Source of the DNA: a bacterium
GTDB taxonomy: Bacteria > Sysuimicrobiota > Sysuimicrobiia > Sysuimicrobiales > Segetimicrobiaceae
Length of the DNA: 64,000 bases
Direction of reading: 5' to 3'
Assembly (NCBI GenBank): GCA_035945995.1
Contig: DASYZR010000166.1
Coordinates: 4,855-68,854 of the forward strand
Part shown: one piece after another, positions 2,151-39,982 of the stretch
Layout of the letters: the number at the start of each line of letters is the position of its first letter
How positions within the stretch are numbered: the stretch's first letter is position 1
Program-made: the position numbers and the translations under genes
Notes under the pieces: model-generated
Told to the model about the DNA's origin: nothing
Database searches by the model: none
What the model saw: only the letters and a program-made list of their open reading frames with translations

Positions 2151-2181
2151 TTCGGCACCCGCGCGCCCCGGCGCGCGGGTC

Positions 2182-3699: not shown

Positions 3700-3774
3700 C
3701 CCGCACCCCCCGTTGTGTCTCCCAGCGCCGGCGCAGGGATTCTTCGCGGAGAAATACCGCCTGCCGCCGGCCGG

Positions 3775-5504: not shown

Positions 5505-5517
5505 TCGTCTGCCTCCA

Positions 5518-6324
5518 TCACGCCACGATGTGGGCCAAGCGCTCGATGTTGAACTTGTACCGGTCGCCGCGGTACACGGTGCGGCGGTACTCTACCGGCT
5601 CACCGCCGGGTGCCGAGATCAGCGAGGTCACGTTGAAGACCGCCGCGGGCCGGTCGAGCGAGAGCAGCGCGGCCTCCTCGGCGGTCGCGAGACGCACTTC
5701 AAACGTCTGCTCGGCCCGCAGCTCGGGGAGGCCCGTGCGCTCCGCGTAGAGTTCCGAGAGCATCCGCGGCCTCCCGGAGGCCGCGGCCCGGCAAAAGATC
5801 TCAACGGTCTCCGCCGCCTTGGCGGCGGGGAAATAACTCCGGTAGATGGCGAGCGGCTCGTCGTCCCCGAGCCCGAGACACACGAGATGCAGCAGCGGTG
5901 TGTCCGGCGGGATACCGAGCAGCCGGCTCAACACCACATCGCCCGGCTCCTGCGTCCGGCTCACGACACGCAGTCCCGGGATCATGCCCTGCGCGGCGAG
6001 CGCCTCGCGAAAGGCCGTGACTCGTCCGAGGGGCTGGGTAATCGGCCCGTGCGCCGCGACGAACGTGCCGCGCCCTTGAATCTTCTTGAGCAGCCCCGCG
6101 CGCGCGAGATGCTCGAGGGCCTGCCGGACCGTCGACCGGCTGACACCGAACTGCTCGGAAAGATCGCGCTCTGAGGGCAGCTGTCCGCCGGCGCCCCAAT
6201 CGCCCTTGCGGATCCTGGCGTTGATGGATCCGAGCAGCTGCCGGTAGAGGGGTCCGCGGCCTCGGGCGTAGACACCCGGGCCCATCTTCCGCCCGTGCCT
6301 CGCGACGTCCGGACGCTGCGCCAC
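5518..6324 (-). CDS. GntR family transcriptional regulator (HutC subfamily, HTH + UTRA domain)
   Basis: Has the GntR winged helix-turn-helix motif (LPSERDLSEQFGVSRSTVRQALEHLARAGLL) followed by a UTRA-like effector domain. Confidence 0.85.
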   Translation of the reverse strand: MAQRPDVARHGRKMGPGVYARGRGPLYRQLLGSINARIRKGDWGAGGQLPSERDLSEQFGVSRSTVRQALEHLARAGLLKKIQGRGTFVAAHGPITQPLGRVTAFREALAAQGMIPGLRVVSRTQEPGDVVLSRLLGIPPDTPLLHLVCLGLGDDEPLAIYRSYFPAAKAAETVEIFCRAAASGRPRMLSELYAERTGLPELRAEQTFEVRLATAEEAALLSLDRPAAVFNVTSLISAPGGEPVEYRRTVYRGDRYKFNIERLAHIVA

Positions 6325-20580: not shown

Positions 20581-20593
20581 GACGGTTGCCGGT

Positions 20594-22641
20594 ATGAGCC
20601 CGCGGACGCCTCGGCACGAGTCCGCCATGAAGGACCGACCCGGACGGGTCGCGATTGAGGGCGTGACGCCTGAGATCGACGGCGGGCGGTTCCCCGCGAA
20701 GCGGACCGCCGGGGACACCGTTGTCGTCGAGTGCGACGCGTTCGCCGACGGCCACGAGCTGCTGGCCGGTGTGCTGCGGTACCGGTGGGAGGGCGATGCC
20801 GTCTCGCGCGGGGGCTGGAGCGAGACGCCGCTCCTCCCGTTGGACAACGACCGCTGGCGGGGCATCTTTGTCGCGGCACGGGCCGGCCGGTACCGCTTCA
20901 CGGTGGAGGCGTGGGTCGATCCGTTTTCGACGTGGGCGCACGATCTCACCAGACGGGTCGAGGCGGGGCAGGACGTGCGGGTGGATCTGCGGATCGGCGC
21001 CGAGATGGTCCGGGCCGCGGCCGGGCGCGCGCCGAGCCGGCGGCGCGGGCCACAGACGCCCTCGGACCGTGCGCGGCTGACCGGGTGGGCCGGGCGTCTC
21101 GAGACGGGTGATGAGGAGGCGGTCCGGATGGCGCTCTCGGCGGAGCTGGCCGACACGATGCGCCGGCACCCCGCGCGGGACGGCGCGTCGCGCTACGCCC
21201 CCGAGCTCACCCTCGTCGTGGACCGTGAGCGCGCGCGCTTCGGCGCGTGGTACGAGATGTTTCCGCGGTCGACCTCGCCGGAGCCGGGCCGCCACGGCAC
21301 CTTTGCCGACTGCGAACGGCGCCTGCCGTACGTCGCCGGCATGGGGTTCGACGTGCTGTACCTGCCGCCGATCCATCCGATCGGCCGCGCGCACCGCAAG
21401 GGCCGCAACAACTCCGAGACGGCCGGTCCGGAGGACCCGGGGAGCCCCTGGGCGATCGGCGCCGCCGAAGGCGGCCACACCGCGATCCATTCCGACCTCG
21501 GGACGATCGACGATTTTCGCCGCCTCCTCGCGCGCGCCCGCGAGCACGGACTGGAGATCGCCCTCGATCTCGCGTACCAGTGCGCGCCGGACCATCCGTA
21601 CGTCCGCGAGCACCCGGAGTGGTTTCGCCGGCGGCCCGACGGCACCGTCCAGTACGCCGAAAACCCGCCGAAGAAGTATCAGGACATCTACCCGTTCGAC
21701 TTCGACTCGGACGACTGGCGGGGGTTGTGGAAAGAGCTCCTCGGCGTCGTGCGGTTCTGGATGCGCGAGGGCGTGCGCATTTTCCGCGTGGACAATCCCC
21801 ACACGAAGCCGTTCGCGTTCTGGCAGTGGTTGATCGCGGAGATCCACCGCACCGACCCCGACGTCATCTTCCTCGCGGAGGCGTTCACGCGCCCGAAGGT
21901 GATGTACCGGCTTGCGAAGGTGGGCTTCACGCAGTCGTACACCTACTTCACCTGGCGCACCACCAAGGCCGATCTGACGGCATACTTCACGGAATTGACC
22001 CGCCCCCCCGTGCGCGACTTCTTCCGGCCCAACCTCTGGCCCAACACGCCGGACATCCTCCACAAGTACCTCCAGGACGGGGGCCGGCCCGCGTTCGCGG
22101 TGCGCCTCGTGCTCGCGGCCACGCTCGGGGCGAACTTCGGCATCTACGGGCCGGCCTTCGAGCTCTTTGAGCACCGGTCGGCCGCCCCGGGAAACCCGCC
22201 CCCGGCCAGCGAGGAGTACCTCAACGCCGAGAAATACGAGATCAAGCGCTGGGACCTCGACCGGCCGGACAGCCTGCGCGGCCTGATCGCCCGCGTCAAC
22301 GCGATCCGGCGGGCCCACCCGGCGCTGCAGCGCGACGACACGCTCGTGTTTCATTCGGTGGACAACGACCAATTGCTCTGCTACAGCAAGACGGCGCCGG
22401 CTGGCGGCGCGGGGCAGGCAGGCGGCGCGGCGGTGCTCGTCGTCGTGAACCTCGATCCGGCGTTCGCACAGTCGGGTTGGACCACGCTGTCGCTGCCCGC
22501 CCTCGGCCTGGGTCCGGACGACCCGTATGCCGTGACGGACCTGCTGACGGACGCGCGCTACACCTGGCGCGGCCGGCGGAACTACGTCGTGCTGCGTCCG
22601 GCCGAGCAGCCGGCGCACATCTTTCGCCTGGACCGGGCGCC

Positions 22642-22645
<4 letters not shown>
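20594..22645 (+). CDS. glgE: alpha-1,4-glucan:maltose-1-phosphate maltosyltransferase
   Basis: Classic GlgE signature ([52 protein letters not shown]). 683 aa. Confidence 0.92.
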
Positions 22646-26127
<3,482 letters not shown>

Positions 26128-26131
<4 letters not shown>

Positions 26132-27981
26132 GCGACGGCACGCCGGGCGCCGTCCTGCTCCCCGGCGGCCGCTGCCGGTTCCGCGTTTGGGCGCCGCGGG
26201 CCAGCGCGGTCGAGGTGTACCTGGTCACCCCGCGCAGCCGGCGCGTCGCGCTCGCATCCTGCGACGGGGGCTACTACGAGGCCGTGGTCCCGGATGTCGA
26301 GGCCGGGGCGCGATACCGGTACGTGCTCGACGGCACGGTCGATTACCCCGATCCGGCGTCCCGCCTGCAGCCGGACGGCGTCCACGGGCCGTCGCAGGTC
26401 GTCGATGCGGCGTTTGCGTGGAAGGACGCCGGGTGGCGCGGGCTCCCGCTCGCAGAGTACGTCATCTACGAACTGCACGTCGGCGCGTTTTCCGCGGCGG
26501 GCACGTTCGACGGAGTGATGGGCGAGCTCGAGGCGCTCGCCGACCTCGGGGTGACCGCGATCGAGCTGATGCCGGTGGCGCAGTTTCCCGGCCGGCGCAA
26601 CTGGGGATACGACGCCGTGTATCTCTACGCCGTGCATCCGGAGTACGGCGGGGCGGAGGGGCTGAAGCGCCTCGTGGACGCCTGCCACCGCCGGGGGCTC
26701 GCCGTTGTGCTCGACGTCGTCTACAACCACCTCGGTCCCGAAGGGAACTACCTCGGAGCATTCGGCCCGTACTTTACGGACCGCTACCGGACGCCCTGGG
26801 GGGACGCGATGAACTTCGACGGCCCCGACAGCGATGCGGTGCGGCAGTTCGTGGTCGACAACGCGTGCTGGTGGGTCGAGGAGTTTCACGTCGACGCGCT
26901 GCGCCTCGACGCCCTCCACGCGGTCGTCGACCAGTCCGCGCGCCACATCTTCGAGGAACTGGCGGGCGCCGTCCACGACCGTGCGCGGGCGGCCGGCCGC
27001 GCGGTGCACGTGATCGCGGAGAGCGGTCTCAACGATCCGCGCCTGCTGCGGCCGCCGGACCGCGGCGGGTACGGCCTCGACGCGGACTGGAACGACGATT
27101 TTCACCATGCGCTCCACGCGCTGCTCACGGGCGAGCGAATGCGCTACTACATGGACTTCGACGGCGCCGCGGACCTGGCGCGGGCGTGGACCGACGGGTT
27201 CGTGCTCGCGGGCCGGTACTCGCCCTATCTCCGGCGCCGGTTCGGGGCGCCGTCGCTCGATATCCCGGCCGAGCGGTTCGTCGTCTTCGCCCAGAATCAC
27301 GACCAGGCCGGCAACCGGGCGCTCGGCGAGCGGCTGACGGCGCTCGTCGGGTTCGAGGCGCTCAAACTGGCGGCGGGGACGGTGTTGCTCTCGCCGTTCG
27401 TGCCGCTCCTCTTCATGGGCGAAGAGTATGGGGAGACGGCGCCGTTTCTCTACTTCACCGACCACGGGGACCCGGGCCTCGCGGCGGCCGTCCGGCAGGG
27501 CCGGTACGAAGAGTACCCGGAGAGTGAGCCGCCCGATCCCCAGTCGCCCGAGACGTTCGAACGGTCGCGGGTCGCGCGCGGCCACGCGCGCGAGCCGCGC
27601 CACCGCGTGCTGCTCGATCTCTATACCGCCCTGATCCGGCTGCGCAAGACGGATCCCGCGCTGGCCAACCTCAGCAAGGGAACCATGGACGTCCGCGTCT
27701 GGGACGACGCCCGCGTTCTCCTGGTCCGCCGCTGGCACGAGCGGAGCGCCGTCGTCGCCGCGTTCAATTTCTCCGCGTCTCCGGCGATGGTCGAGGCGGC
27801 GGTGCCGGCCGGCCCGTGGAAACTCGTGATCGACTCCGCGGACGCGCGGTGGGCCGGCCCCGGCCGCGCGGCGCCCGAGATCCTCGAGTCCCGCGGCACG
27901 GTGATGCTCACGCTCGCACCGTGGTCCTTCGCGCTGTTCGGGACGGACGTGGACCCGGGCGCCGAAGGAGGCCGCCCGTGA
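26128..27981 (+). CDS. treZ: malto-oligosyltrehalose trehalohydrolase (GH13)
   Basis: N-terminal E-set region (RFRVWAPRA) and a GH13_10 catalytic core (YELHVGAFSAAGTF, GVTAIELMPVAQFPGRRNWGYD, VLDVVYNHLGPEGN). The ATG overlaps the treS-mak stop as ATGA. Confidence 0.85.
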
Positions 27982-29036
27982 CCCCGGAACGCAAACCCGT
28001 TGTCGCGCTGACGTTCGGCGATCCGGCCGGGATCGGGCCGGAGCTCATCGCAAAACTCGTGGCGCGCGGCGATCCGGTGCGGCAGGCGACCGCCGTCGTG
28101 GTCGGCGACCGGTGGGTGTGGGACGACGGGCAGCGCGTGGCCGGCACGCGGACGGCGCTCCACGAGATCGCGTCCATCGCCGAGGCGCGGACCCGGGAGA
28201 AGCCGGGCGCACCGTTCTTCCTCCCGATCGACACCGTGACGCCGCACGACGTGCGGCGCGCAACGGCCACCGCCGGGGGCGGCGCCTCGGTCCTCCGCGC
28301 GCTGGCGATCTGCCTGGATGCCGCGCGCGCCGGCCAGATCGACGCGATCTGCTTTGCGCCCCTCAACAAGCTCGCGATGAAACAGGGGGGACTCGCCTTC
28401 GAGGACGAGCTGCACTTCTTCGCCGACTATCTCGGGGTACGGACCTACTTCTGCGAGCTCAACGTGCTGGACCCCGACGGCCGCGGGACAGGCGGGCTGT
28501 GGACCACGCGCGTCACGTCGCACATTCCGCTCCGGGACGTCGCCGCAGCACTCAGCCGCGACCGCATCAAGGACGCGGCCCGGCTGCTCTATCGCGCGCT
28601 CGAGGCGGCGGGGGTCGGGCGGCCGCGGGTCGCCGTGGCGGCCCTCAACCCGCACGCCGGCGAGGGCGGCACCTGCGGGCGGGAAGAGATCGACATCATC
28701 GAGCCGGCGGTGCGCGAGGCGCGCGCCGAAGGCCTCCCGATGGACGGACCGTTTCCGGCCGACACGATCTTTTTGCGGGCCCGCGCCGGTCTCTACGACG
28801 GCATTCTCACGATGTACCACGACCAGGGGCAGATCGCGATCAAGTTGATGGGCTTCGAGCGCGGGGTGACCGTCCAGGGCGGCCTGCCCGTCCCGATCAC
28901 CACGCCGGCGCACGGTACCGCGTTCGACATCGCCGGCCAGAACAAGGCCGGCGTAGAGGCGCTCACCCGGGCCTTCGCGATCGCCTGCCGGATGGGCGCC
29001 TCCAGCCGTGCCGCGGGAACCGTGCGCGCACCCTGA
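27978..29036 (+). CDS. PdxA family dehydrogenase (4-hydroxythreonine-4-phosphate dehydrogenase-like)
   Basis: PdxA signature regions (ALTFGDPAGIGPE, ALNPHAGEGG, YHDQGQIAIK). GTG start overlaps the treZ stop as GTGA. Confidence 0.85.
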   Translation: MTPERKPVVALTFGDPAGIGPELIAKLVARGDPVRQATAVVVGDRWVWDDGQRVAGTRTALHEIASIAEARTREKPGAPFFLPIDTVTPHDVRRATATAGGGASVLRALAICLDAARAGQIDAICFAPLNKLAMKQGGLAFEDELHFFADYLGVRTYFCELNVLDPDGRGTGGLWTTRVTSHIPLRDVAAALSRDRIKDAARLLYRALEAAGVGRPRVAVAALNPHAGEGGTCGREEIDIIEPAVREARAEGLPMDGPFPADTIFLRARAGLYDGILTMYHDQGQIAIKLMGFERGVTVQGGLPVPITTPAHGTAFDIAGQNKAGVEALTRAFAIACRMGASSRAAGTVRAP

Positions 29037-29076
29037 GACGCGGGTCGGCGGCGCCTTACCAGCGGGCCCGGCGTTC

Positions 29077-29709
29077 TTAGCCCAACGCCGCTTCCAACGT
29101 CCGGTTCAGTCCCGCCAATCGCTCTGCCGGCAGTCGCGCGATGAATTTATGCAAGGCCGCCGCGAGATCGGGAGCGTCGTGCTCCATCTCCTGCAGCTTG
29201 CCGGTCGATAGACGGTAGAACGTGCTGGGAGAGAGCGCAACCACCGACGCGGTGCGCACACCGCCGATGTACATGGGCACCTCGCCCACGACCGTGCCGC
29301 CGCGCATCGTCCGCAGACGCGTGATCCGGCCATCGGGCAACTCAACCTGGGCCGTCAACTGACCGGACTCGATGAAGTACATCGCGTCGGACGGATTGCC
29401 CTGCCGCACGAGATAGTCGCCTTCGCCCACCTGGTGCTTCTCGAGATACGTCATCAACCGGTAGTTGACGACGAACAGCACAATCGCCACCACCACGCCC
29501 ATGCCCACACCTGCCAGAAAGTTCACCGCGCCGACGGCGGCGAGAATCAGCAGCACCAGCACATAATCGGTGCGCGGCAGTTTGAACCACGCGTCGTACA
29601 GCCACTCCACGAGGAACGAGAGGCCGAGAAAAAAGAGAAAACCGCCCAGTACCGGTTTGGGGAAGAATGACAGGAGCCCTGCGCCGAAGAAGAGCACAGC
29701 GGCGCACAC
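29077..29709 (-). CDS. membrane protein with a C-terminal cyclic-nucleotide-binding domain, probably a truncated SulP-like transporter
   Basis: The N-terminal about 100 aa contain two or three TM helices. The C-terminal cNMP-binding fold reads GEGDYLVRQGNPSDAMYFIESG...RTMRGGTVVGE. The hydrophobic frame stays open upstream of the GTG start with no upstream ORF, suggesting the N-terminal transporter part has been lost. Confidence 0.6.
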   Translation of the reverse strand: MCAAVLFFGAGLLSFFPKPVLGGFLFFLGLSFLVEWLYDAWFKLPRTDYVLVLLILAAVGAVNFLAGVGMGVVVAIVLFVVNYRLMTYLEKHQVGEGDYLVRQGNPSDAMYFIESGQLTAQVELPDGRITRLRTMRGGTVVGEVPMYIGGVRTASVVALSPSTFYRLSTGKLQEMEHDAPDLAAALHKFIARLPAERLAGLNRTLEAALG

Positions 29710-30024
29710 GGCGGCCGCGAAGAGCCGGCCAGCCGGCTGTTCGCTCCCAAACGGTATGCCAGGGCCGACAGGCTCAGCGTGTGGTAGCCGCGAGATTGGC
29801 CAGGCCCGCCGATTCGAGTTCGCGATTCAGATCGGTGTCCTGACGGATCGTCAATTCGAGTCCACTGGGATCCCTGTGAGGAAAGCAACCGTAGTTCGGG
29901 TGCGTGTACTCCGGCACGCATGGTCGAGGGCAACGTCGCATCGTCAGGCTTGTTATGCGGTTTCTAGTACCTTCCTGTACCCTGATTACCGCCTCTTACC
30001 ACACAACTCGTTGGCACGACATTA

Positions 30025-30060
30025 GCAAAAGGCCGGGCGGCTGTGGCGACCGCCCGGCCT
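30025..30060 (-). terminator. rho-independent terminator (10-bp GC stem GGCCGGGCGG/CCGCCCGGCC, 9-nt loop, followed by UUUUGCU on the minus strand)
   Basis: Perfect inverted repeat seen directly in the sequence, about 20 nt downstream of the small ORF's stop codon. Confidence 0.5.
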
Positions 30061-30078
30061 CGTGGAGCAGCCTGTCGC

Positions 30079-30267
30079 CTACGCCCTACGACTCCAAGGC
30101 CACCGCACGTTCCCGAAGGCGAGCCACAGGCCGAAGGGGATGAGGATGGCATCGGTTGTCAGGTTGATTACCCCGAGTGTCCCGCCCGGCTTCGGAATCC
30201 AGACGTAGACGCCTATAGCCAGAGCAAGCCATCCCCTTACGTCTTTCAGACCAAGGGACATCTTCAT
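30079..30267 (-). CDS. small hydrophobic membrane protein (62 aa)
   Basis: Product MKMSLGLKDVRGWLALAIGVYVWIPKPGGTLGVINLTTDAILIPFGLWLAFGNVRW. AGGGGGGG ribosome-binding site 8 nt upstream. Start is 16 nt downstream of the secreted-protein gene, and the terminator follows. Confidence 0.45.
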   Translation of the reverse strand: MKMSLGLKDVRGWLALAIGVYVWIPKPGGTLGVINLTTDAILIPFGLWLAFGNVRWPWSRRA

Positions 30268-30283
30268 GGCCGACCCCCCTGCC

Positions 30284-31066
30284 TTAATGGGATGCGCCGG
30301 CTTCGTGCGTGGCGGCGCCGGCGAGATCGGATAACCCCTTGCCCAAGAGAAACAATCCGCCCATGATTTGGTTAATGGTAACGGGCGAACTTGACGGAAA
30401 GGAGATGCCCATGACCCCCATCGCCAGAATGATTTCCGAGTAGCCAACGAATGACTGACCGACATTCCAAAGTGAGATGGAGCCGCAGCACGGGTCCAAC
30501 GCATTTCCGCCGCCTTGGGCGAAAAGGTCCACCGGCTTGTCGCAACTGTAGCAGCCAGCGCCACCCTGGTATGACGGGTCTGGGTCCAGTTCCAGCGGAC
30601 CCGTGTTGAAGTTGCCCACCTGAGCCAACTCTTCCTCGGCTACGACATGCAGCCCCGAGCCATTGAGGAACGCGACGATGGATCGGGTGCAGTCCGCGCC
30701 GCGTGCGAGGATGAGGCGGTGACCGAGGAAGATGAGATACCGTCGATACATCTTCGCGGCATAAGCCGTGATCGCCGGCCGAGCGTCGGATGACATGAGG
30801 AAGGCGTTTTCGTTTGGTGCGATGCCGCGCTGCTTCGCGTAGTGCTGCGTCGCCTTATTAAGCGCGAGTAGCGCAACCGCGTTCCGCAGCGTCGTTTTCT
30901 CATCGGGACTGATGCAGCCGGCGCGTCCCTTGGCTGCCTCGAAGTCCGACTGGGCCTGTGCGGGCGTAATCGTGAGAATCGCCGCAGAACCTGCCTGCGC
31001 CAAGGGAACCGTCACTGCGACCGCCACGAGCACTATCCCAACGAGTAATTTCCGGGCCATACGCAT
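30284..31066 (-). CDS. secreted hypothetical protein (Sec signal peptide; Cys- and Gly-rich C-terminal region)
   Basis: Signal peptide MRMARKLLVGIVLVAVAVTVPLAQA|GS. AGGGGGAGG ribosome-binding site upstream. Lower-GC coding sequence with real-protein composition. No recognisable domain. Confidence 0.6.
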   Translation of the reverse strand: MRMARKLLVGIVLVAVAVTVPLAQAGSAAILTITPAQAQSDFEAAKGRAGCISPDEKTTLRNAVALLALNKATQHYAKQRGIAPNENAFLMSSDARPAITAYAAKMYRRYLIFLGHRLILARGADCTRSIVAFLNGSGLHVVAEEELAQVGNFNTGPLELDPDPSYQGGAGCYSCDKPVDLFAQGGGNALDPCCGSISLWNVGQSFVGYSEIILAMGVMGISFPSSSPVTINQIMGGLFLLGKGLSDLAGAATHEAGASH

Positions 31067-31231
31067 CCTCCCCCTCTTTCCGGCGAGGGCCGGGAATGAT
31101 AGCGGCCCGATGATACGGACAGTCTGCCGGGGAGGCAGTCAAGGTGGAGACACATAGACCGTCGCGTGCGAGACAAGAGCACGATGCAAATCGAACGTTA
31201 CGACGCCGGGCGCCGGAACGGGTTGGGAACC

Positions 31232-31864
31232 TCATAAGGCTGCCGGGGAAAGAATTTTGATGGCGCCTCCCCGCAACTCGACGACGCCGGCGCGCCGGAG
31301 TGCCATGAGCGCTGAGTTCACGCGCTGGCGGCTCGCCCCGGCGAGCGCCGCCAGGTCGCCCTGCGTCAGGTGCAGGGACGCCGGTCGCCCGTCGGCGAGC
31401 TCGCGTTCCGCCAGCGTCTGCAACGTGCGTCTGACGCGCACGGCGAGGCCTTCCAGCGCCAACGTCTCGGCGTGACCGGCAAGAAAGCGCACGCGATCGC
31501 TGAGATAATTCATGATCGCGAGCGCGACGGCGGGGTCGGCGCGCAGGGCACGTTGAACCTCGCCGACCGGCAGGCCCTGCACCGTGGATTCCACCGTCGC
31601 GCGGCACGAGGACTCGCACGGCCCTCCGCGGATCGCGTTCTCCAGTCCGACCAGGCCGCCCGGCCCCACCCAATCCGTGGCGATGTACGATCCGTCCTCG
31701 CGTTCCGACACGAGAATAAGGCCTCCGGCCTGCACGCGAAAGACATAGCTGCTGGGATCACCGTCGCGCGTCAGGAATTCGCCCTTGCGGAGGGCGCGTC
31801 TTCGCAGGCGCGAAGCGCAGTTCGGCCCGAACAACATCGCGGCAACGGCAGTCGAGTTGGTCAT
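31232..31864 (-). CDS. Crp/Fnr family transcriptional regulator
   Basis: N-terminal cNMP-binding domain and a C-terminal helix-turn-helix (TQGDLAALAGASRQRVNSALMALRRAGVV). Confidence 0.85.
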   Translation of the reverse strand: MTNSTAVAAMLFGPNCASRLRRRALRKGEFLTRDGDPSSYVFRVQAGGLILVSEREDGSYIATDWVGPGGLVGLENAIRGGPCESSCRATVESTVQGLPVGEVQRALRADPAVALAIMNYLSDRVRFLAGHAETLALEGLAVRVRRTLQTLAERELADGRPASLHLTQGDLAALAGASRQRVNSALMALRRAGVVELRGGAIKILSPAAL

Positions 31865-31991
31865 CGTCGCGCCAGGCCGGCCCCGACCGCATCCCTGTGA
31901 GACGTGACTGCTCGGGTATCGTTTGCGAACGAGCGGGGGTGGATTCCTTCAGACGATTACTAGTAGCGGGGCTTGCGATCGTCCGCCGGAT

Positions 31992-34115
31992 TTAGCCCGT
32001 GGCGTCCGCCACCCCGGCGTGGGTCGTCTGCTCCCAGGGTGTCCCGGCGGGGAGCGCGAGCTCCCAGCGGAGCACCAGCATCGCCCCCTGGTGATTCCGC
32101 TCGAGCCCGGCCTCCGAATTCGAGATCGTGAAGACGGGGAGGCTCCAGACGTCCGCGGGCCGCTCGAGGGCGAACGCAAGCCTGAGGCCGGAGTACGTCT
32201 CGCCGGCGTGCACGCCGGTGGTCGGGGGGAGATCCGCCGGCTCCCACAACGAGACGCGCGTCCCGTCCGCTGCGGCCCACACCTGCTCCGGTCCCCCGAA
32301 CAGCCCGAGGCTCCACTGTTCCGCGAGCACGGCGCGCAGGACGCCCGGCCCATCCCACATGAGACGCACGGCGTGGGTGAGCCCCCGGCGGCGTATGTCC
32401 ACCTCGATCCGGCGCCCGAGGGTCACCTGCCCCTCGCCAACCGGCGCGCGCCGTGTCAGCGCGGCCGCGGCGCCCGTCCCGGTCTCCTCGAGACGCCACG
32501 CGTACCGGCCGGAGCCGAATCCGCCCAGATCCTCCGCGGTGTCGCGCCACGCTTCGTCGCGCAACACCTCCGCCGGCCAGAGCCACGTTCGCATGGTCGC
32601 CCGGCGCACGCGATCGTACATGAGCAGCCGTTCGAGGCCCGGTTCCTTGGCGTGGTCGCCCGCCGCGTGAATCGAGACGGCTCCCTCGATCGGAGGCGCC
32701 TCGTGGCGCACGCGCGCATGGTAGGCTTCCGCCCGCCTCGTCAGCACGTTGCCGAGATGACGCCGCGCGGTCCGATCGTCCCACTCCACGACGCTGCCGC
32801 CCCGCGCCGGGTCCACCGTGCACACGTCCAGCTGGGTGGCCAGGTACAGTTCGGGCTGCCCGTCCCCGTTGAGGTCTTCGGCCGACGTCTCGGCGTACGG
32901 TTCCGGGTGCCGGATGAGGTCCGCGTCCGCTTCCGCGGCAATGAGGCGCTCAAACGCCGCGCTCCGAATGTGCGGCAGATAGATGCCGCCGAAGACGCCG
33001 TGCCAGTAGGTGCAGTTGCACTCGCCGCTCCAGAGCTCATCGAGCGCCCGCTCCCGGTCCGGCCCGGGCGGCATCGCGTGGACCTTGCGTCCGGCGCGGA
33101 GCGCCAGGTGGTGCAGCGTGTTGGCCTCCGGATATCGCACGAGGAAGTGCCGCCAGAATCCGCCGCGCACCAGCGACGCGAGGTCCTCGCGGCCCCCGGT
33201 TTCGAGGTCGTGCCGGAAGGTCGCCCGCGCCTCGGCGCGCTGCGGCGGGAGCGCCCATTCCGCCATCTCGTCGTACGTGGCCGTCGGCAGGTAGATCGCG
33301 CCGGCCGGGTCGTGGGTGCGCCGGTAGTCGCCCGGAGGCACCACGTCGATCCACGGCGTCGCCTCCAGCGTGTCGAAGAACCGATCCACCCACCCGCGCT
33401 CCCAGCAGTGCGCGTACGTGGTCGGCCACATCCCGAACTTCTCCCCGTCGTCGCCCATCAACGCGAGATCGAGCGGCGCGTCGCGGCCCTCCGGCCGGAC
33501 CTCCGTCTCCGCGAGCGTGCGGAGGTAGGCCACGACGTCCTCCGGCGACACCCACGGAATGAGATACCGCAGGCGCCGGAGGCTCGGGAACAGCGCGAGC
33601 GAGACGCCCTCCTCTTCGGTCACGTAATAGCCGAGCAGTTGTCGGTCTTCGAGCCCGACGGCGTGGAAGTGCGAGTCATCGACGATGGTGTACTTCACGC
33701 CGGCCTCGCCGAGCGGGCGCGCCAGATGCGGCTCCCAGACGCGCTCGGCCAGCCATAGCCCGTCCGCGGAGTACCCGAACCCGTCCCTGATCGCGCGCGT
33801 CATCTTCACGATCTGGCCGCGCTTGTCCGCGTCGGGCACGATCGGGAGGATCGCCTCGTAGTAGGCGCCGGTGAGCATCTCGATCTGTCCGCGCGCCACG
33901 AGCGCCCGCAGCCGCGCGATGAGCTCGGGGCGGTGCGCGCGCAGCCAGTCGAGCAGCGGGCCGGAATAATGCAGCGCGAGGCGGATGCCGGGGTGGCGCT
34001 CGAGCGAGGCGATCATCGGCGCGTACGATCGCTCGGTCGCCTCCGCGAAGACGTGGTCGAAGTTGCCGACCGGCTGGTGGTTGTGCAGCGCCAGGGCGAG
34101 TGCGAGCCGATGCAT
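31992..34115 (-). CDS. glycoside hydrolase family 57 protein (4-alpha-glucanotransferase / alpha-amylase type)
   Basis: Canonical GH57 motifs LALHNHQP, GQIEMLTGAYYEAILP and LMGDDGEKFGMWP. 707 aa. Confidence 0.9.
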   Translation of the reverse strand: MHRLALALALHNHQPVGNFDHVFAEATERSYAPMIASLERHPGIRLALHYSGPLLDWLRAHRPELIARLRALVARGQIEMLTGAYYEAILPIVPDADKRGQIVKMTRAIRDGFGYSADGLWLAERVWEPHLARPLGEAGVKYTIVDDSHFHAVGLEDRQLLGYYVTEEEGVSLALFPSLRRLRYLIPWVSPEDVVAYLRTLAETEVRPEGRDAPLDLALMGDDGEKFGMWPTTYAHCWERGWVDRFFDTLEATPWIDVVPPGDYRRTHDPAGAIYLPTATYDEMAEWALPPQRAEARATFRHDLETGGREDLASLVRGGFWRHFLVRYPEANTLHHLALRAGRKVHAMPPGPDRERALDELWSGECNCTYWHGVFGGIYLPHIRSAAFERLIAAEADADLIRHPEPYAETSAEDLNGDGQPELYLATQLDVCTVDPARGGSVVEWDDRTARRHLGNVLTRRAEAYHARVRHEAPPIEGAVSIHAAGDHAKEPGLERLLMYDRVRRATMRTWLWPAEVLRDEAWRDTAEDLGGFGSGRYAWRLEETGTGAAAALTRRAPVGEGQVTLGRRIEVDIRRRGLTHAVRLMWDGPGVLRAVLAEQWSLGLFGGPEQVWAAADGTRVSLWEPADLPPTTGVHAGETYSGLRLAFALERPADVWSLPVFTISNSEAGLERNHQGAMLVLRWELALPAGTPWEQTTHAGVADATG

Positions 34116-34138
34116 GGCCGTGCCCTACCTCACGCGCC

Positions 34139-35740
34139 TCACGCGTCGTCCTCGCCGGCGGCGGCTTCGTCCCCTCGCGGCGACCGACCGGCGGCCGCCG
34201 TCTCGGACGCATGGTCGGCCACGCTGCCGGAGGGCATGTACAGCACGACGGCCGCGAGCCCCAGCGCGACGAACCCCAGTCCCAGCACGAAGGCGCCGTG
34301 GATCCCTTGGGCCAGCGCCTGCCGGAGCACTTCGTGTCCCGCCGGACCCAGCCGCGCCTGCGATCCCGCATCGAGCATCGCCTGCGGGTCGCCGATCGTG
34401 GGCAGGCCGAGCCGCACGCGCGCCGGCAGGTGCGCCAGCCGCGCGTCGAGGATGCCGACCAGCACCGCGCCCTGCGCGCTCACGCCGATCGCGCTGCCGA
34501 GATTGCGCGTAAAGATGTTGATCGACGTGACGATGCCCCGCAGCGGGCGCGCGACCGCGTTCTGCATCGCGATGATGAACATCGTCGCCGTGAGCCCCAT
34601 GCCGCTGCCCAGCACGATCATGTCGGCAAAGACGACGGTGGCCGTCGCGTGGACGTCCAGGCGCGTCAGGAGCAGCGACCCGGCGGCCAGCAGGGTCATC
34701 CCGCCCGTGGTCACCGGCCGGTAGCCCCACAGGAGCGCGAGGCGGCCGCCCACGATGCTCGACACGGTCCACATCACCATGTAGGGCATCAGCGCTTCCC
34801 CGGCGGTCGTGGCGCTCTTGCCGGTCACGGCCTGGACGAACAGCGGCACGTACGCCGTGGTCCCAAAAATACTTATGCCCAGCAGGAACCCGCCGAGGCA
34901 CGCCACGGCGATGATCCGGTTGCGGAACAGGCTGAACGGCAGGAACGGCTCTTCGGCGCGCATCTCTACGCGCGCGAAGAGCAGCAGGAGCGCCACGCAG
35001 AGGACGGCCAGCCCGGCCGCCTGCACGGAGAGCCACGCGAACTCGTGGCCGCCCCAAAACATCAGCAGCAGCAGGACGATCGAGGCGGCGGAGAGCAGGC
35101 TGATGCCGGCGTAGTCGATCGACGCGCGGGCGGCGGTCCTGGACTCGTGGAACGCCAGCGTGAGGATCAGCGTCGCGACGAGACCGGCCGGCACGTTGAT
35201 GAAGAAGATCCACCGCCACGCCCCGTGGTCGGCGAGAGCGCCGCCGACCAGGGGCCCGACGACGGCGGCGAGGCCCCACACCCCGCTGAACATGCCCTGG
35301 ATGCGCAGCCGCTGTTCGAGCGGGAAGAGGTCGGCGATGATCGTGAGCGCGATCGGGAGGACCGCGCCGCCGCCGATGCCCTGCAGCAGCCGGAAGAACA
35401 CGAGCTGCCCCATCGATTGCGAGAGCCCGCAGAGCGCCGAGGCCCCGATGAAGCCGAGGATGCCGATCAGGTACACGCGCTTGCGGCCGTGGATGTCCGC
35501 GAGGCGGCCGAAGATCGGCGTCGTCACCACAAAGGCGATCTGGTAGGCCGCGAAGACCCACGAGTAGAGGGCCAGGCCGCCGAATGCGCCGACGATCGTC
35601 GGCAGGGCCGTCCCCACGGCCGTGGCGTCCATCGCCGCGAGGAACATGCCGAGCATCGCCGCGACCGTGACGACGGCCCGGCGGCTCGGCGCGGGCGATC
35701 CGGCCTCGTCGCGGCCGCGGCCGGCGGTTACGACAGCCAT
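34139..35740 (-). CDS. MFS transporter (DHA2-like, 14 TM)
   Basis: Lower 533 aa of the run-on ORF 34139..36994. Has MFS motifs (GRLADIHGRKRV, LQGIGGGAVLP). Start MAVVTAG overlaps the glcE stop by 13 nt. Confidence 0.85.
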   Translation of the reverse strand: MAVVTAGRGRDEAGSPAPSRRAVVTVAAMLGMFLAAMDATAVGTALPTIVGAFGGLALYSWVFAAYQIAFVVTTPIFGRLADIHGRKRVYLIGILGFIGASALCGLSQSMGQLVFFRLLQGIGGGAVLPIALTIIADLFPLEQRLRIQGMFSGVWGLAAVVGPLVGGALADHGAWRWIFFINVPAGLVATLILTLAFHESRTAARASIDYAGISLLSAASIVLLLLMFWGGHEFAWLSVQAAGLAVLCVALLLLFARVEMRAEEPFLPFSLFRNRIIAVACLGGFLLGISIFGTTAYVPLFVQAVTGKSATTAGEALMPYMVMWTVSSIVGGRLALLWGYRPVTTGGMTLLAAGSLLLTRLDVHATATVVFADMIVLGSGMGLTATMFIIAMQNAVARPLRGIVTSINIFTRNLGSAIGVSAQGAVLVGILDARLAHLPARVRLGLPTIGDPQAMLDAGSQARLGPAGHEVLRQALAQGIHGAFVLGLGFVALGLAAVVLYMPSGSVADHASETAAAGRSPRGDEAAAGEDDA

Positions 35741-37104
35741 CCCAACCGTCCCGGGACCATGATGCTCCGCGGATCGTATTGCGCCCGCAGGCGGCGCATC
35801 AGGTCGACGGCGGGCGGCGCGGCTCCCCACACCGGCAGGCGCGGCTTGAGCGCGGGCGGCGCGACTTCGACGACGGCGTAGCCCTCGGGCGCGTCCGGTA
35901 CTTGGCCGTCGGCGGCCCGCCCGAGGGATTCGGCCAGCGCCGTCGCCCGGTCCGGCCCGGCCGCCACGTAGGTGAGTCCGATACCGGCGTGCGCCAGCAC
36001 CGCGGCGGGCGGATCCCCGGGGACCGCGTGGGCCGCGCCGGCGACGTCGATCCATCGCGTGATCGGCGTACCGACGCGGAAGACGACGCCGCCCGGATGC
36101 GTGGCGGGCGACGGAAATCCTGCCACGGCCCGCCACAGCGCCTCGTGCGCCGCGCCGGAGTGCACCTCGAGGACGGCGTCCGGCCCCCCGGCGGCCGCGG
36201 TCAGCGCGCGCATCTCCTCGACGTGGCGCCGGCGGCTCTCTTCGAGGCCTTCGGCCAGGAGCAGCACCCCCCATCGCCCGGCCCGCGCCTCGATCCCCGC
36301 GGCCCGCCCCAGCATGACGAGGGTTTCCGGGCTCGCGGCCTCGAGCGCGGAGGGGAGCAGGTACGACCGCATCACCGCGGTGGTGAGCGCGTGCGCCGCC
36401 GCGGCGCTCGGCAGGGTGACGAGGACCGTTACGCCGTCGCCGGGCAGCGGCAGGATCTTGAACGTCACGTCGGTGATGACCCCGCACGAGCCGAGCGAGC
36501 CGATGAACAACTTGCCGAGGTCGTACCCGGCGACGTTCTTCACGACCTTCCCGCCGGCCTTGATCACCTCGCCCGTGGGCAGCGCGACGCGGATGCCGAT
36601 GACGAGATCGCGGATCGCGCCCCACAAGAGGCGGCGGGGACCGTTGCGGTTCGCCGCGACGAGGCCGCCGATCGTGGCCGCCTCCGCGCCGGGCGGATCG
36701 AGCGGGAGCCACTGCCCGTTCGCCGCGAGGGCCCGCTGCACGTCGCGGAACGGCGTGCCGGCGCGGACCGCGACGACGTAGTCGGCCGGCGTGTAATCCG
36801 TGATCCCGGTGAGGCGCGTCGTCTCGATGACGAGGTCGGCGCGCTCGGGTGGATTGCCGAGATGCTGGTGCGCCCCGCCGCCGCGCGGGATCACGCCCGC
36901 GTTGGTGTCCGCGGCTGCGGTCAGGAGGGCGGCGACCTGCTCGGGATCCGCGGGCGCCGCCCCCAGCGCGGGGCGTACGCCGTCGATCTGCCATCCGTCA
37001 AGGCGGCCCGGGTCTGTGGTGACGTGGGCGTCCCCGACGATGCCGCGGACGCGCGCGGCCAGGGCGCCGCCGACCGCGTCTTGGGTGTGAGACACGCCGG
37101 TCAC
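35728..37104 (-). CDS. glcE: FAD-binding oxidoreductase, glycolate oxidase subunit GlcE-like
   Basis: FAD-binding PCMH domain (GVIPRGGGAHQHLG). GTG start overlaps the glcF stop as GTGA. Confidence 0.8.
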   Translation of the reverse strand: MTGVSHTQDAVGGALAARVRGIVGDAHVTTDPGRLDGWQIDGVRPALGAAPADPEQVAALLTAAADTNAGVIPRGGGAHQHLGNPPERADLVIETTRLTGITDYTPADYVVAVRAGTPFRDVQRALAANGQWLPLDPPGAEAATIGGLVAANRNGPRRLLWGAIRDLVIGIRVALPTGEVIKAGGKVVKNVAGYDLGKLFIGSLGSCGVITDVTFKILPLPGDGVTVLVTLPSAAAAHALTTAVMRSYLLPSALEAASPETLVMLGRAAGIEARAGRWGVLLLAEGLEESRRRHVEEMRALTAAAGGPDAVLEVHSGAAHEALWRAVAGFPSPATHPGGVVFRVGTPITRWIDVAGAAHAVPGDPPAAVLAHAGIGLTYVAAGPDRATALAESLGRAADGQVPDAPEGYAVVEVAPPALKPRLPVWGAAPPAVDLMRRLRAQYDPRSIMVPGRLGWLS

Positions 37105-38468
37105 GCCGGGCCGGGCGGCCCCGGGGCGCGCTCCGGATCGCCGGCGGCGTACGCCCGGTCGAGCAGGTCCACGACGTGGCAGGCTTCCATCGGCAGGCCC
37201 CGGGCGCGGATGCCGGCCGCGAGCTGCAGGAGGCATCCGGGGTTCGGGGCGACGAGGAGATCGGCGCCGGTCCGGGCGACGGCGCGCATCTTCTCCTCGA
37301 GAATCTGCCGCGAGTAGCCGGGCTGCACTACGTTGTAGATGCCGGCGCTGCCGCAGCAGCGGTCGGCCCCCTCCATCTCGACCAGCTCGAGCCCGGGGAT
37401 GCGGCGCAGCAGATCGCGCGGCTCGCGGCGGATGCGCTGGCCGTGGGCGAGGTGGCAGGGGTCCTGATAGGTGGCGCGCGCCCGGATCTCACCGAGGGAG
37501 CCGGTGAGGCCCAGGTCGGCGAGGAACTCCGTCGCGTCCCGGCACAGCCGGCTGTACGCGTCCGCCCGCGCCATGTACGCCGGGTCGTCGTCGCGGAACA
37601 GCACCGGATATTCCTTGCTCGCGACCCCGCAGCCCGCCGCGTTGATGACCACGGCGTCGACGCCCGCGCGCAGGAACACCTCGATGTTCCGGCGGGCCAT
37701 CTGCTGCGCGGCCGTGCGTTCGCCGTTGTGGATGTTGAGGGCGCCGCAGCAGGTCTGCTCCCGCGGGACGACGACCTCGCACCCGTTCCGCCGCAGCACG
37801 CGCACGGTGGCCTCGTTCGCCCCCGGAAAGAGGACGCTCATCGCGCAGCCGCTCAAGAAGCCCACGCGCGCGCGCCGCGGCCCGATCGCGGGGAAGACTT
37901 CCTGCGCCGGCGCAAACGGGGCATCCGGGACTTCCGGCAGCAGGGCTTCCATTTCTCCGAGCCGCTTCGGCATGAGGTGCAGCCGGCGGAGCGCGCGGCC
38001 GAGCCCGCTCCGCTGGTAGAGACGGAGCAGCCCCGCCGCGGCGCGCAGCCGCCGGGGGTGCGGCATCAGGTGCCGCAGCGCCGCGAGCGTTACGCGGCGG
38101 GCCAGCGGCGAGCCGGTGGGGCCGATCTCCGCGCGCGCCGCTTCGATGATCGTGCCGAAGTGGACGCCGGCGGGGCAGGCGGTCTCGCAGGCGCGGCAGC
38201 CGAGGCAGACGTACATGTGCTCCTCGAGCCGCGCATCGATCGGAATGCGTCCCTGCGCCGCGGCCTCGATCAGATGGATCCGGCCGCGCGGCGACTCGGT
38301 CTCCACGCCCAGCATCCGGTACGTCGGGCACGCCGGCAGGCAGAACCCGCACTGAATGCACTTGTCGAGCTCCGGGATCAGCAGCCGCGGGATCGGCTGG
38401 GCGGCCGCCCGGCCGTGCGGGCCGCCGTCACGCGGCGCGGTCCTGCCTGCGCGGGCGGGGGACGCCAT
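37101..38468 (-). CDS. glcF: (Fe-S)-binding protein, glycolate oxidase iron-sulfur subunit GlcF-like
   Basis: Two 4Fe-4S ferredoxin Cys clusters (CIQCGFCLPACP, CLGCRACETACP) and CCG domains (CCGSAG). The listed ORF extends spuriously upstream; the ATG at 38468 lies 6 nt after the glcD stop. Confidence 0.85.
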   Translation of the reverse strand: MASPARAGRTAPRDGGPHGRAAAQPIPRLLIPELDKCIQCGFCLPACPTYRMLGVETESPRGRIHLIEAAAQGRIPIDARLEEHMYVCLGCRACETACPAGVHFGTIIEAARAEIGPTGSPLARRVTLAALRHLMPHPRRLRAAAGLLRLYQRSGLGRALRRLHLMPKRLGEMEALLPEVPDAPFAPAQEVFPAIGPRRARVGFLSGCAMSVLFPGANEATVRVLRRNGCEVVVPREQTCCGALNIHNGERTAAQQMARRNIEVFLRAGVDAVVINAAGCGVASKEYPVLFRDDDPAYMARADAYSRLCRDATEFLADLGLTGSLGEIRARATYQDPCHLAHGQRIRREPRDLLRRIPGLELVEMEGADRCCGSAGIYNVVQPGYSRQILEEKMRAVARTGADLLVAPNPGCLLQLAAGIRARGLPMEACHVVDLLDRAYAAGDPERAPGPPGPA

Positions 38469-38473
38469 CGCGC

Positions 38474-39946
38474 TCAGATCCACAACCCCGACGCCGCAAG
38501 GCGCGGCGGGCGGCGGGTGAGGAGTTCCCCACAGGAGACGGGGGTCGGGAACACCTTGAAGGGGTTCATGCAGTCCTCCGGGTCGAACGCCGTCTTCAGC
38601 CGCCGCTGCGCGCCGAGGTCGGCCTCGGTGAAGATCCACGGCATGTAGTTGTTCTTTTCGAAGCCGATGCCGTGCTCTCCGCTCAAGGTCCCGCCCGCCG
38701 CCACGCACGCGGTGAGCATCTCCTCGCTGGCCCGCATCACCCGCTCGGTTTCCCCGGGGGCCGCCGCGTCGTAGGGGATGAGCGGGTGCAGGTTGCCGTC
38801 GCCGGCGTGAAACACGTTGGCGACCCGGATGCCGTGGCGCCGCGCGATCTCGACGATCTGATGCATGATCGCCGGCAGTTGGCTCCGGGGGACGACGGCG
38901 TCGTGGAGGAAGTAGTTGGGGGCCAGGCGCCCCATCGCCCCGAACGCGCCCTTGCGGGCCGCCCAATACAGAAGCCGTTCCTGGTCGGTCCGCGCCGTGC
39001 GGACCTCACGGGCGCGATTCGCGCGGCACAGGTCCTCGACGGTGCGGGTGCACCGTTCGAGGCCTTCCCGGACGCCCTCCACTTCGATCAGCAAGACCGC
39101 GCCCGCGTCGAGGGGGAGCCCCGCGTGCACCGCGGGCTCGACGGCCTGCGCCGTGAGCTGGTCGATCATCTCGAGCGAGGTGGGCCCGATACCCGAGGCG
39201 ATGATGTCCGCCACGGCCTGGCTGGCGTCCTCGATCGTCTCGAAGATGCCGAGCATCGTCCGGACCGTCTCGCGGCGCCGCAGCAGCCGGACGGTCGCGG
39301 CCGTCACGATGCCGATCGTGCCCTCCGACCCGACGGCGAGGCCGGTGAGATCGAGCCCCGGCTCGTCCGGCCCACGGCCGCCCAGCCGCGCGACCGAGCC
39401 GTCCGCCAGCACCATCTCGAGCCCGAGCACGTGGTTGGTCGTCACGCCGAAGGCGAGCGTGTGCACGCCGCCGCTGTTGTTGGCCACGTTGCCGCCAATG
39501 CTGCACGCGGACTGGCTGCTCGGGTCGGGCGCGTAGAAGTACCCGTCGCCCTCGACCGCGCGCGTGACGTCGAGGTTGATCACGCCCGGCTGCACGACCG
39601 CGGTCCGGTTCTCGAGGTCGACGGCGAGGATCCGGCGCATCTTGCTCATCGCGACGACGATGCCGCCGATCGGCGTGATCGCCCCGCCGGACAGCCCGGT
39701 GCCCGAGCCGCGGGCCACGAGGGGGACGCCGAACCGGCCGGCCGCGCGCACGAGGGCGGCCACGTCGTCCGTCGACTCGGGGAACACGACGAGGTCCGGC
39801 AGGGCGGCCAGGACCGACCCGTCGTACTCGTAGGCCAACAGGTCGACCGGCTGCGCGAAGACCCGCTCCCGGCCCAGCGCGTCGACGAGGGCGCCGATGA
39901 GGGCGTCGCGGTCGGCAATACGGCAGCGCAACTCGGCGAGGCTCAC
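38474..39946 (-). CDS. glcD: FAD-linked oxidase, glycolate oxidase subunit GlcD
   Basis: FAD-binding domain (GSGTGLSGGA) and a C-terminal oxidase domain. 490 aa. Confidence 0.9.
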   Translation of the reverse strand: MSLAELRCRIADRDALIGALVDALGRERVFAQPVDLLAYEYDGSVLAALPDLVVFPESTDDVAALVRAAGRFGVPLVARGSGTGLSGGAITPIGGIVVAMSKMRRILAVDLENRTAVVQPGVINLDVTRAVEGDGYFYAPDPSSQSACSIGGNVANNSGGVHTLAFGVTTNHVLGLEMVLADGSVARLGGRGPDEPGLDLTGLAVGSEGTIGIVTAATVRLLRRRETVRTMLGIFETIEDASQAVADIIASGIGPTSLEMIDQLTAQAVEPAVHAGLPLDAGAVLLIEVEGVREGLERCTRTVEDLCRANRAREVRTARTDQERLLYWAARKGAFGAMGRLAPNYFLHDAVVPRSQLPAIMHQIVEIARRHGIRVANVFHAGDGNLHPLIPYDAAAPGETERVMRASEEMLTACVAAGGTLSGEHGIGFEKNNYMPWIFTEADLGAQRRLKTAFDPEDCMNPFKVFPTPVSCGELLTRRPPRLAASGLWI

Positions 39947-39982
39947 GGTCCACTCAGTATAACAAACGCGGGCGCGCGGAGG

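Follow-up and report, generated by a model that had tools for sequence, protein, structure and literature searches.

A three-gene cassette on the minus strand of a 64,000-nt stretch of DNA from an uncultured, GC-rich soil bacterium (hereafter the window: positions 4,855 to 68,854 of contig DASYZR010000166.1, assembly GCA_035945995.1, family Segetimicrobiaceae of the Sysuimicrobiota) encodes a transcription factor, a protein predicted to be exported by the Sec pathway and, directly downstream, a 62-residue membrane partner. Judged by sequence, the latter two proteins define undescribed families. We tentatively favour the reading that this pair is a pro-toxin with its membrane immunity protein, analogous but not homologous to SdpC of Bacillus subtilis, on account of the logic that it shares with the SdpC/YitM systems. 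The supports for this favoured reading are a conserved gene order, sharply divergent blocks between close relatives, the island status of the cassette, the sparseness of the family, decayed copies, an additional partner paralogue at one locus (L010) and the hydrophobicity of a C-terminal helical hairpin. The general kind, an exported protein with an adjacent small membrane partner and polymorphic-toxin-like behaviour, is already known; the cassette itself is cleanly delimited (Table 1).

The candidate module reads as a large open reading frame (ORF), a small ORF and a GC-rich hairpin followed by UUUU, and the large ORF, signal peptide, 62-residue ORF 16 nt downstream and terminator described in the first-pass annotation are all present on this strand. 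The length of 260 residues given there holds for the ORF, but the true start probably lies two codons later: the second ATG is most likely the real start of the large gene, because homologues begin MGRKLL or MLRKLL and because the gene was called independently, with 258 residues, on 10 contigs of the same species. A Shine-Dalgarno sequence (GGAGG) adjoins the first ATG, and a G-rich one precedes the small ORF, 16 nt beyond the TAA of the large ORF. The two genes are strictly adjacent, apparently translationally coupled and served by one common terminator. The latter (GGCCGGGCGG-N9-CCGCCCGGCC, then UUUUG) lies about 20 nt past the small ORF within a 63-nt stretch that folds at -34.9 kcal/mol (z = -4.06; 0 of 200 shuffles equally stable), and was missed by a consensus terminator scan because its loop is 9 nt long and it has only four U.

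Both ORFs are real genes under purifying selection. GC content by codon position is coding-like (0.72 at third positions, GC3, against 0.48 at second positions), and the large gene has a ratio of non-synonymous to synonymous substitution rates (dN/dS) of 0.215 between orthologues at two related loci, L002 and L003; for the small gene and the upstream regulator the values are 0.30 and 0.18. Across ten contigs of the same species the large gene shows 2–3 synonymous and no non-synonymous changes, while the small gene is identical throughout.

Table 1. Features of the cassette and its island in the window (aa, amino acids; TM, transmembrane; cNMP, cyclic nucleotide monophosphate; AF2, AlphaFold2; pLDDT, predicted local distance difference test)
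Feature	Coordinates	Strand	Description
Large gene, exported protein	30284..31066	-	260 aa from first ATG; probable start 31060, giving 258 aa
Sec (signal peptidase I) signal peptide	30989..31066	-	aa 1-26; AQA/GS cleavage motif, read from sequence
Conserved extracytoplasmic domain	30617..30970	-	aa ~33-150; from alignments and AF2: three helices, 3-stranded sheet, short helix
Gly/Pro-rich, poorly conserved linker	30467..30616	-	aa 151-200; CYSC 172-175, CC 193-194; AF2 pLDDT <40
C-terminal Gly/Ala-rich helical hairpin	30317..30466	-	aa ~201-250; helix, turn, helix, D-L-x-x-A, short Gly-rich tail
Small gene, partner protein	30079..30267	-	62 aa (MKMSLGLKDVRGWLALAIGVYVWIPKPGGTLGVINLTTDAILIPFGLWLAFGNVRWPWSRRA); two short hydrophobic helices
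Intrinsic-terminator-like hairpin	30027..30062 (about)	-	GC stem 10-13 bp, loop 7-9 nt, then UUUU
Intergenic leader, presumed promoter-operator of large gene	31067..31231	-	165 nt
Crp/Fnr-family transcription factor, first cassette gene	31232..31864	-	210 aa; cNMP_binding (PF00027) 2.2e-10, HTH_Crp_2 (PF13545) 1.2e-12
SulP/cNMP ORF	29077..29709	-	210 aa; last SulP TM helices and cNMP-binding domain; cNMP_binding 1.7e-16; GC 0.63
Low-GC island	29003..32000	.	2,998 nt; replaces 334-nt spacer of sister genomes between GH57 4-alpha-glucanotransferase and PdxA

All full-length members of the large family share one architecture, consisting of a signal peptide, a two-Cys domain, a Gly-rich linker, a helical hairpin and a tail. 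The N-terminus of the window protein, MRMARKLLVGIVLVAVAVTVPLAQA/GS (the slash marking the cleavage site), combines a basic n-region, a 15-residue h-region and AxA at -3/-1, and an n/h/c region ending in an AxA-like motif was found in 10 of 10 full-length members. On a crude Hessa scale the signal peptide is the sole segment with a negative insertion free energy. The cleavage region (PLAQA/GS) lacks the lipobox L-[AS]-[GA]-C and the first Cys stands at residue 51, so the protein does not qualify as a lipoprotein. The domain that follows, of ~115 residues, is the best conserved part (dN/dS 0.09 and 95% identity between L002 and L003), with the motif Y-R-x-Y-L...G-x-R-x-[IV]-L-[AS]-R-G-x-x-C-T-R-x-[IV]-V-A-F...E-E-E-L. 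Cysteines present family-wide are limited to C51 and C126, which are near-invariant and presumably form a disulfide. An AF2 model built from 13 sequences reaches pLDDT 70–83 at residues 40–130 and is of moderate confidence overall (mean pLDDT 58); the linker is predicted to be disordered.

Ahead of the hydrophobic tail, a CC or CxxC pair occurs in 11 of the 13 members, with both pairs only in the window protein. The CxxC motif stressed in the first-pass annotation is not conserved even within the branch to which the window protein belongs, and the description of the protein as Cys/Gly-rich survives for glycine alone, and then only for the last 110 residues (17% vs 6%); cysteines number six in 260 residues. 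The hairpin turns at [STN]-x-T-P-x-T between helices that AF2 places at residues 202–218 and 231–257, and family tails are Gly/Ser-rich, three of them ending in SAGDRER. Scored on a crude Hessa-type scale, the hairpin helices come out at a marginal +2 to +5 kcal/mol, similar to the SDP segment of SdpC (+1.8) and far from a signal or anchor helix, signal peptides being below 0. As modelled, they are probably no stop-transfer anchors, being too weakly hydrophobic, and export should take in the entire protein.

The helices of the small partner are joined by a W-I-P-K-P-G-G turn and the second carries the motif D-A-I-L-I-P-F-G-L-W-L; across the family, W-x-P-K/R-P in the turn, D-A-[IV]-[LI]-x-P...L-W-L in helix 2, a following W-P and basic ends are shared. 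Both termini are basic, the predicted orientation is N-in/C-in, and the cytoplasmic tails are short and poorly conserved. The earlier description as a two-helix membrane protein stands insofar as two hydrophobic helices are present, but their cores are short (12–16 residues), leaving two TM segments as a prediction. A two-helix small ORF lies directly 3' of the large gene in the window and at L001/L002, L003, L011, L004, L005–L007, L010/L012, L014 and L013, the last with a longer form of 119 residues. A hidden Markov model (HMM) built from the three closest members and tested on 2007 six-frame ORFs gave as best non-training matches L014 (2e-6), L004 (3e-6), L005 (0.007) and L011 (0.016). Absence of the pair elsewhere had been named in advance as an outcome that would count against a module; instead the pair recurs, with statistical support for small-gene homology, and, apart from L016, a partner was found in all relatives whose downstream sequence is long enough.

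What had been proposed as a two-gene module holds as a pair but is in fact a set of three genes, because a transcription factor is always present upstream of the large gene: of the Crp/Fnr type in the window, L001–3, L011 and L013, and of the XRE type in L004, L005 and L010. The order regulator, large gene, small gene is kept at 9 distinct loci, even where identity has fallen to ~25–30%. In the window the regulator combines a cNMP-binding domain followed by a Crp-type helix-turn-helix (HTH), as in the Crp/Fnr family, and within the Crp branch the identity of the regulator tracks that of the large protein. Both the constant position of a DNA-binding regulator as first gene and this tracking would suit a three-component trans-envelope signalling system, in which the large protein would be an exported sensor, the hairpin and miniprotein a relay, and the basic ends of the miniprotein would control the Crp/Fnr or XRE regulator, much as SdpI sequesters SdpR or in the manner of CnrX-CnrY. 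The placement of the cassette of relatives behind HD-GYP/HDOD cyclic-nucleotide genes, and a weak, non-significant Foldseek resemblance to the helical sensor CnrX (prob 0.41–0.44), point the same way. We nevertheless consider signalling improbable. Branches differ in having a Crp/Fnr or an XRE regulator while their large and small proteins stay homologous, which would not be expected if a protein-protein relay to the regulator had been conserved. The miniprotein, moreover, has only short cytoplasmic tails of low conservation, and islands polymorphic for presence and absence are unusual for sensors.

The leader between the regulator and large gene showed no match to a sigma-70 consensus and no Rfam family (riboswitch or small RNA). 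Leaders of relatives carry short inverted repeats, GTCAC-N5-GTGAC in L002/L003 and GACAC-N5-GTGTC in L013. A common Crp operator upstream of the large gene was entertained and dropped, as these palindromes have no convincing counterpart in the window. As a separate observation, in L001, L003, L008 and L013 an HD-domain protein and an MFS-HDOD-HD_5 (HD-GYP-like) fusion, where MFS denotes the major facilitator superfamily, precede the cassette upstream of the Crp gene; they are absent beside the window copy. Such neighbours hint at cyclic-nucleotide control of the Crp-like regulator.

Comparison of close relatives revealed where the pair varies. L002 and L003 are 88–98% identical over the Crp gene and onward to residue ~200 of the large protein, fall to 48–72% across L002 6731–7086, and return to 80–97% downstream. 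This block spans the large protein from residue ~202 to its end (hairpin and tail), the spacer, and residues 1–48 of the partner; it is 40.6% divergent compared with 9.0% in both flanks (maximum chi-square 237, 0 of 200 permutations as extreme). Synonymous divergence (dS) within it is 0.78–0.89 against 0.23 elsewhere, 3–4 times higher, while dN/dS stays below 0.3, which points to a functional allele, either old or imported, and not to decay. In a second, unrelated pair, L004/L005, identity is 86–97% up to residue ~124 of the large protein and 31–62% over the rest and in the small gene. This comparative evidence supports a functional, probably physical, partnership of hairpin and partner.

An allele-like divergent block within conserved flanks is also what would be seen if the hairpin and partner alleles marked sibling identity, as a non-toxic, polymorphic surface pair for self or kin recognition. 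We regard this as very improbable, given that the variable part is membrane-embedded or weakly hydrophobic and not an exposed surface domain, that very few alleles are known, and that no associated adhesion or transfer machinery is present. A different non-toxic reading, the chief rival to the pro-toxin pair, which we hold to be rather unlikely while giving it real weight, is that of an envelope protein whose N-terminal domain works outside the cytoplasmic membrane, by binding or enzymatically, and whose hairpin provides a tether via the helices of the miniprotein, the co-divergence being co-evolution of their interface. The high conservation of the N-terminal domain is better explained in this way than by a pro-toxin; the flexible Gly-rich linker is typical of tethered surface proteins, and the strict adjacency, apparent translational coupling and single terminator of the two genes, as well as the lack of any toxin-family signal, agree with it. 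An anchor interface, however, offers no obvious reason for a 41%-divergent allele inside 91%-identical flanks, nor does a tether explain presence and absence between sister genomes and decay in some lineages, and the hairpin helices are weakly hydrophobic for such a role.

Several copies are damaged or rearranged. The degenerate copy at L008 5001–5672 (protein P0006; also L009), seen in two independent samples, lacks the regulator as well as the signal peptide and some 70 N-terminal residues, and an in-frame deletion fuses the Gly-rich tail of the large protein to the small-protein loop, keeping the second helix of the partner (...AAGVGG/PINLTVDAILIPFGLWL...). P0006 was not counted as evidence of a 'Rosetta-stone' fusion, since with its signal peptide, 5' gene part and regulator missing it looks like a deletion remnant. 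The large gene of L004 is frameshifted in the hairpin turn, and L010 carries at 5077–5199 an extra, shorter (truncated) paralogue of the small gene (MGYRWVALDVHGVPWVVRGIVAAIILPFGLWLTEYHRWWRH) after the first copy. The damage in L008, the L004 frameshift and the extra paralogue in L010 fit an accessory system. A possible further small-gene copy was noticed at L010 ~5497–5787; it appears frameshifted, with MYRPWRDGGWRDH... and hydrophobic helices lying in different frames.

The cassette of the window lies in a low-GC island. Sister-genome contigs L027 and L028 are collinear (blastn, ~80% nt) with window positions 22421–29002 and 32001–39974 and have no match between, and their GH57 protein is at least 90% identical to that of the window. 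Island GC is 59–63% (60% overall), compared with 0.70–0.75 in the flanks and 70.6% for the window; GC3 is 0.72–0.81 in island genes and 0.87–0.91 in the flanks, and of 7 other loci, 6 likewise have a module with lower GC than the flanks. The window arrangement recurs in ~20 contigs from two sets of sequencing runs. The only contents of the island are the Crp gene, the large and small genes and a cNMP/SulP ORF. Sulfate_transp matches the latter only at profile positions 327–378 of 380, the N-terminal ~350 residues being missing; the 317 nt upstream are non-coding, gene calls on sister contigs give 140 or 210 residues, and the ORF is probably a truncated remnant that came with the island. Because of the low GC and the empty site in collinear sister genomes, cassette and SulP/cNMP remnant constitute an island that was acquired horizontally or lost. 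Its ends show no tRNA, integrase or flanking direct or inverted repeats beyond chance.

This remnant and the damaged copies of two relatives are also what could be cited for there being no functional module at all, only spurious ORFs or decaying insertion remnants. That is hardly credible in view of the purifying selection on both genes, their intact frames with Shine-Dalgarno sequences and a common terminator, and a synteny kept over deep divergence.

The flanks themselves (18472–29036 and 31992–37000) form a conserved alpha-glucan (GlgE-pathway) cluster, ~80% collinear at the nucleotide level with the metagenome-assembled genome GCA_035308905.1 (L028), in the order GH57 with TrkA_C domain, GlgE, TreS-Mak fusion, GH13/CBM48 enzyme, PdxA, island, GH57 4-alpha-glucanotransferase and MFS. 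At the 'empty site' of L027/L028 (9202–9435) lies a gene for a 77-residue protein with a signal peptide and coiled-coil tail (MARTAAIAVVLVLMAL...LNAIEEQLNSIQK), which suggests that the GH57–PdxA spacer is a hot spot for genes of small secreted proteins. Further small ORFs of 42–44 residues were noted at L001 9404–9538 and L013 5944–6072 and 6127–6255, whose N-terminus resembles a signal peptide and whose tail is Gly-rich (MRTILAI..LGGITG...GGNGAGG). They stand just upstream of an HTH+TPR regulator, ~2–3 kb past the cassette, with no counterpart in the window, and could be signalling or bacteriocin-like peptides.

Both proteins and all family members lacked significant matches in Pfam, NCBIfam, PADLOC and PHROGs, so that neither a component of anti-phage defence (PADLOC) nor a phage protein (PHROGs) was recognised. 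Searches of PDB sequence profiles with the whole family, the N-terminal domain alone and the small family returned microplusin as best match (E 0.03–0.24), which was judged to be chance, and the AF2 model found no PDB fold match with Foldseek. Phage and plasmid collections gave no tblastn match, nor did viral contigs contain relatives. The window protein is labelled 'hypothetical protein' at NCBI. The first-pass annotation had reported no detectable similarity to families that it recognised, and the family-library, PDB-sequence and fold searches bear this out for described families at large. The large family amounts to 12 clusters in 1.84 billion representative proteins (exhaustive HMMER pass). 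A profile search of a 5.8-billion-protein set, its prefilter probably swamped by low-complexity words, yielded two extra members only, and scans of genome and metagenome contigs added only L010–L012. Two candidates were rejected: an ORF at L011 5552–6031 resembling the family in its CC and hydrophobic tail (hhalign probability 0.4%), and, as a maturation factor, the 441–459-residue gene downstream in L001/L013, which is a RumA-like RNA methyltransferase with no counterpart near the window cassette.

The secreted effector or pore-former proposed in the first-pass annotation stays a putative role. If the pair is indeed a pro-toxin with its immunity protein, the large protein would be exported via Sec, its C-terminal helices being too weakly hydrophobic for stop-transfer. 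The hairpin, possibly clipped near the Cys pair and disulfide-locked, would then enter the membranes of neighbouring cells and dissipate their membrane potential. The producer would be protected by the co-expressed miniprotein binding the cognate hairpin in its own membrane, where the two would contact each other with an allele-specific fit, and the upstream Crp/Fnr (or XRE) factor may time expression of the pair. Put as a general claim, the cassette might represent an undescribed family of Sec-exported modular pro-toxins, each with a hairpin warhead and an allele-matched, co-transcribed two-helix immunity miniprotein of ~60 residues, that is, a minimal polymorphic toxin system able to do without secretion or maturation genes of its own and carried by small islands in uncultured high-GC bacteria of soil and thermal soil; this we consider possible, if on the doubtful side.

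Several points weigh against a pro-toxin/immunity pair. The family has no sequence or fold similarity to a toxin, bacteriocin, colicin pore domain or immunity family, and the island contains no SdpA/SdpB-like maturation genes, protease or dedicated exporter. The N-terminal domain is the most conserved part, and the pro-toxin model leaves its role unexplained. L016 (P0012) is without a clear downstream partner. The mosaicism of L002/L003 extends beyond the divergent block to the upstream HD-domain genes, positions 590–5260 (HD and MFS-HDOD-HD genes) showing 40–70% identity in otherwise ~90%-identical contigs, from which it follows that this lineage often shows mosaicism or recombination. Finally, the hydrophobicity scale is crude and the AF2 model only moderately confident.

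Were the toxin/immunity reading true, the cassette would be among the simplest polymorphic antagonism systems known, with one Sec substrate and one 62-residue protector, and, its variable interface being two short helices per side, a compact model of intramembrane helix-helix specificity. The theme of an SdpC-like exported pro-protein with a hydrophobic C-terminal warhead would extend to unrelated proteins of uncultured lineages, suggesting that such systems are under-detected because they lack family signatures. As a tethered envelope protein, the large protein would found an ordinary orphan family. Either way, the outcome is two new protein families and an island of 3 kb with clear limits.

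Among known systems, the contact-dependent glycine-zipper bacteriocins of Caulobacter, CdzC/CdzD with the immunity protein CdzI (PMC5380434), resemble the pair in having hydrophobic helices rich in small residues that are proposed to act in membranes, together with a membrane immunity protein. They differ in size and domain structure, and the present cassette has neither a type I secretion system nor a regular GxxxGxxxG zipper, with 0–2 such motifs per C-terminal 110 residues in the family, none in the window protein and no Pfam match. Class II bacteriocins and class IIa microcins (such as colicin V) share a Gly/Ala-rich, weakly hydrophobic, membrane-active segment and a sporadic, island-like distribution, and, as in that class, a small membrane protein gene lies directly downstream, here in 9 distinct loci. 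In contrast to those peptides of <10 kDa, however, the 26-kDa precursor here includes a large conserved domain and bears a Sec signal in place of their double-glycine leader; the island encodes no C39-peptidase ABC exporter, and the family has no Pfam bacteriocin or immunity match. With polymorphic toxins (CdiA-CT/CdiI, Rhs, colicin/pyocin) the cassette has in common a conserved N-terminal part, a variable C-terminal part varying jointly with an adjacent cognate partner, recombination breakpoints inside the toxin gene, and extra or orphan partner genes. Its protein, by contrast, is much smaller, relies on Sec alone for export, is without known pre-toxin or trafficking domains, and has a hydrophobic hairpin in place of an enzymatic variable domain; the 10-helix-bundle pore domain of pore-forming colicins was likewise not found.

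The closest parallel is drawn with the Bacillus subtilis systems of SdpC (the sporulation-delaying, or SDP, cannibalism toxin) and YitM, which have SdpI and YitQ as antitoxins and SdpR and YizB as regulators (TIGR04032; PMC6818787, PMC2910880). In SdpC/YitM proteins the N-terminal three-quarters are conserved and begin with a Sec signal, and the hydrophobic toxin at the C-terminus, which starts at a Cys, is specific to each group; their loci encode non-homologous membrane antitoxins and a local regulator and are inserted as islands (PMC6818787). The likeness covers a precursor of ~200–260 residues with a typical Sec signal, conservation of the N-terminal three-quarters, a branch-specific hydrophobic C-terminal segment beside Cys, a nearby cognate membrane protector that varies with the toxin variant, a local transcription factor, and an island present in some strains only. 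The SdpC-type layout is present in the window protein, with a signal at residues 1–26, CC at 193–194 ahead of helices 202–218 and 231–257, and SDP-like hydrophobicity. By sequence, 0 of 9 family members match TIGR04032 at E<=5, an SdpC sequence serving as positive control (7.8e-53), and hhalign of SdpC against the family profile gives 0.4%. The protector here is a two-helix miniprotein of 62 residues in the same operon, whereas SdpI-family proteins have 3–12 TM segments and an operon of their own, sdpRI. The hydrophobic part also differs, being a helix-turn-helix followed by a Gly-rich tail, and the hosts are uncultured high-GC bacteria. With no SdpC homology and no SdpA/B genes, the pair is therefore best described as one that would work like SdpC, not as a member of its family.

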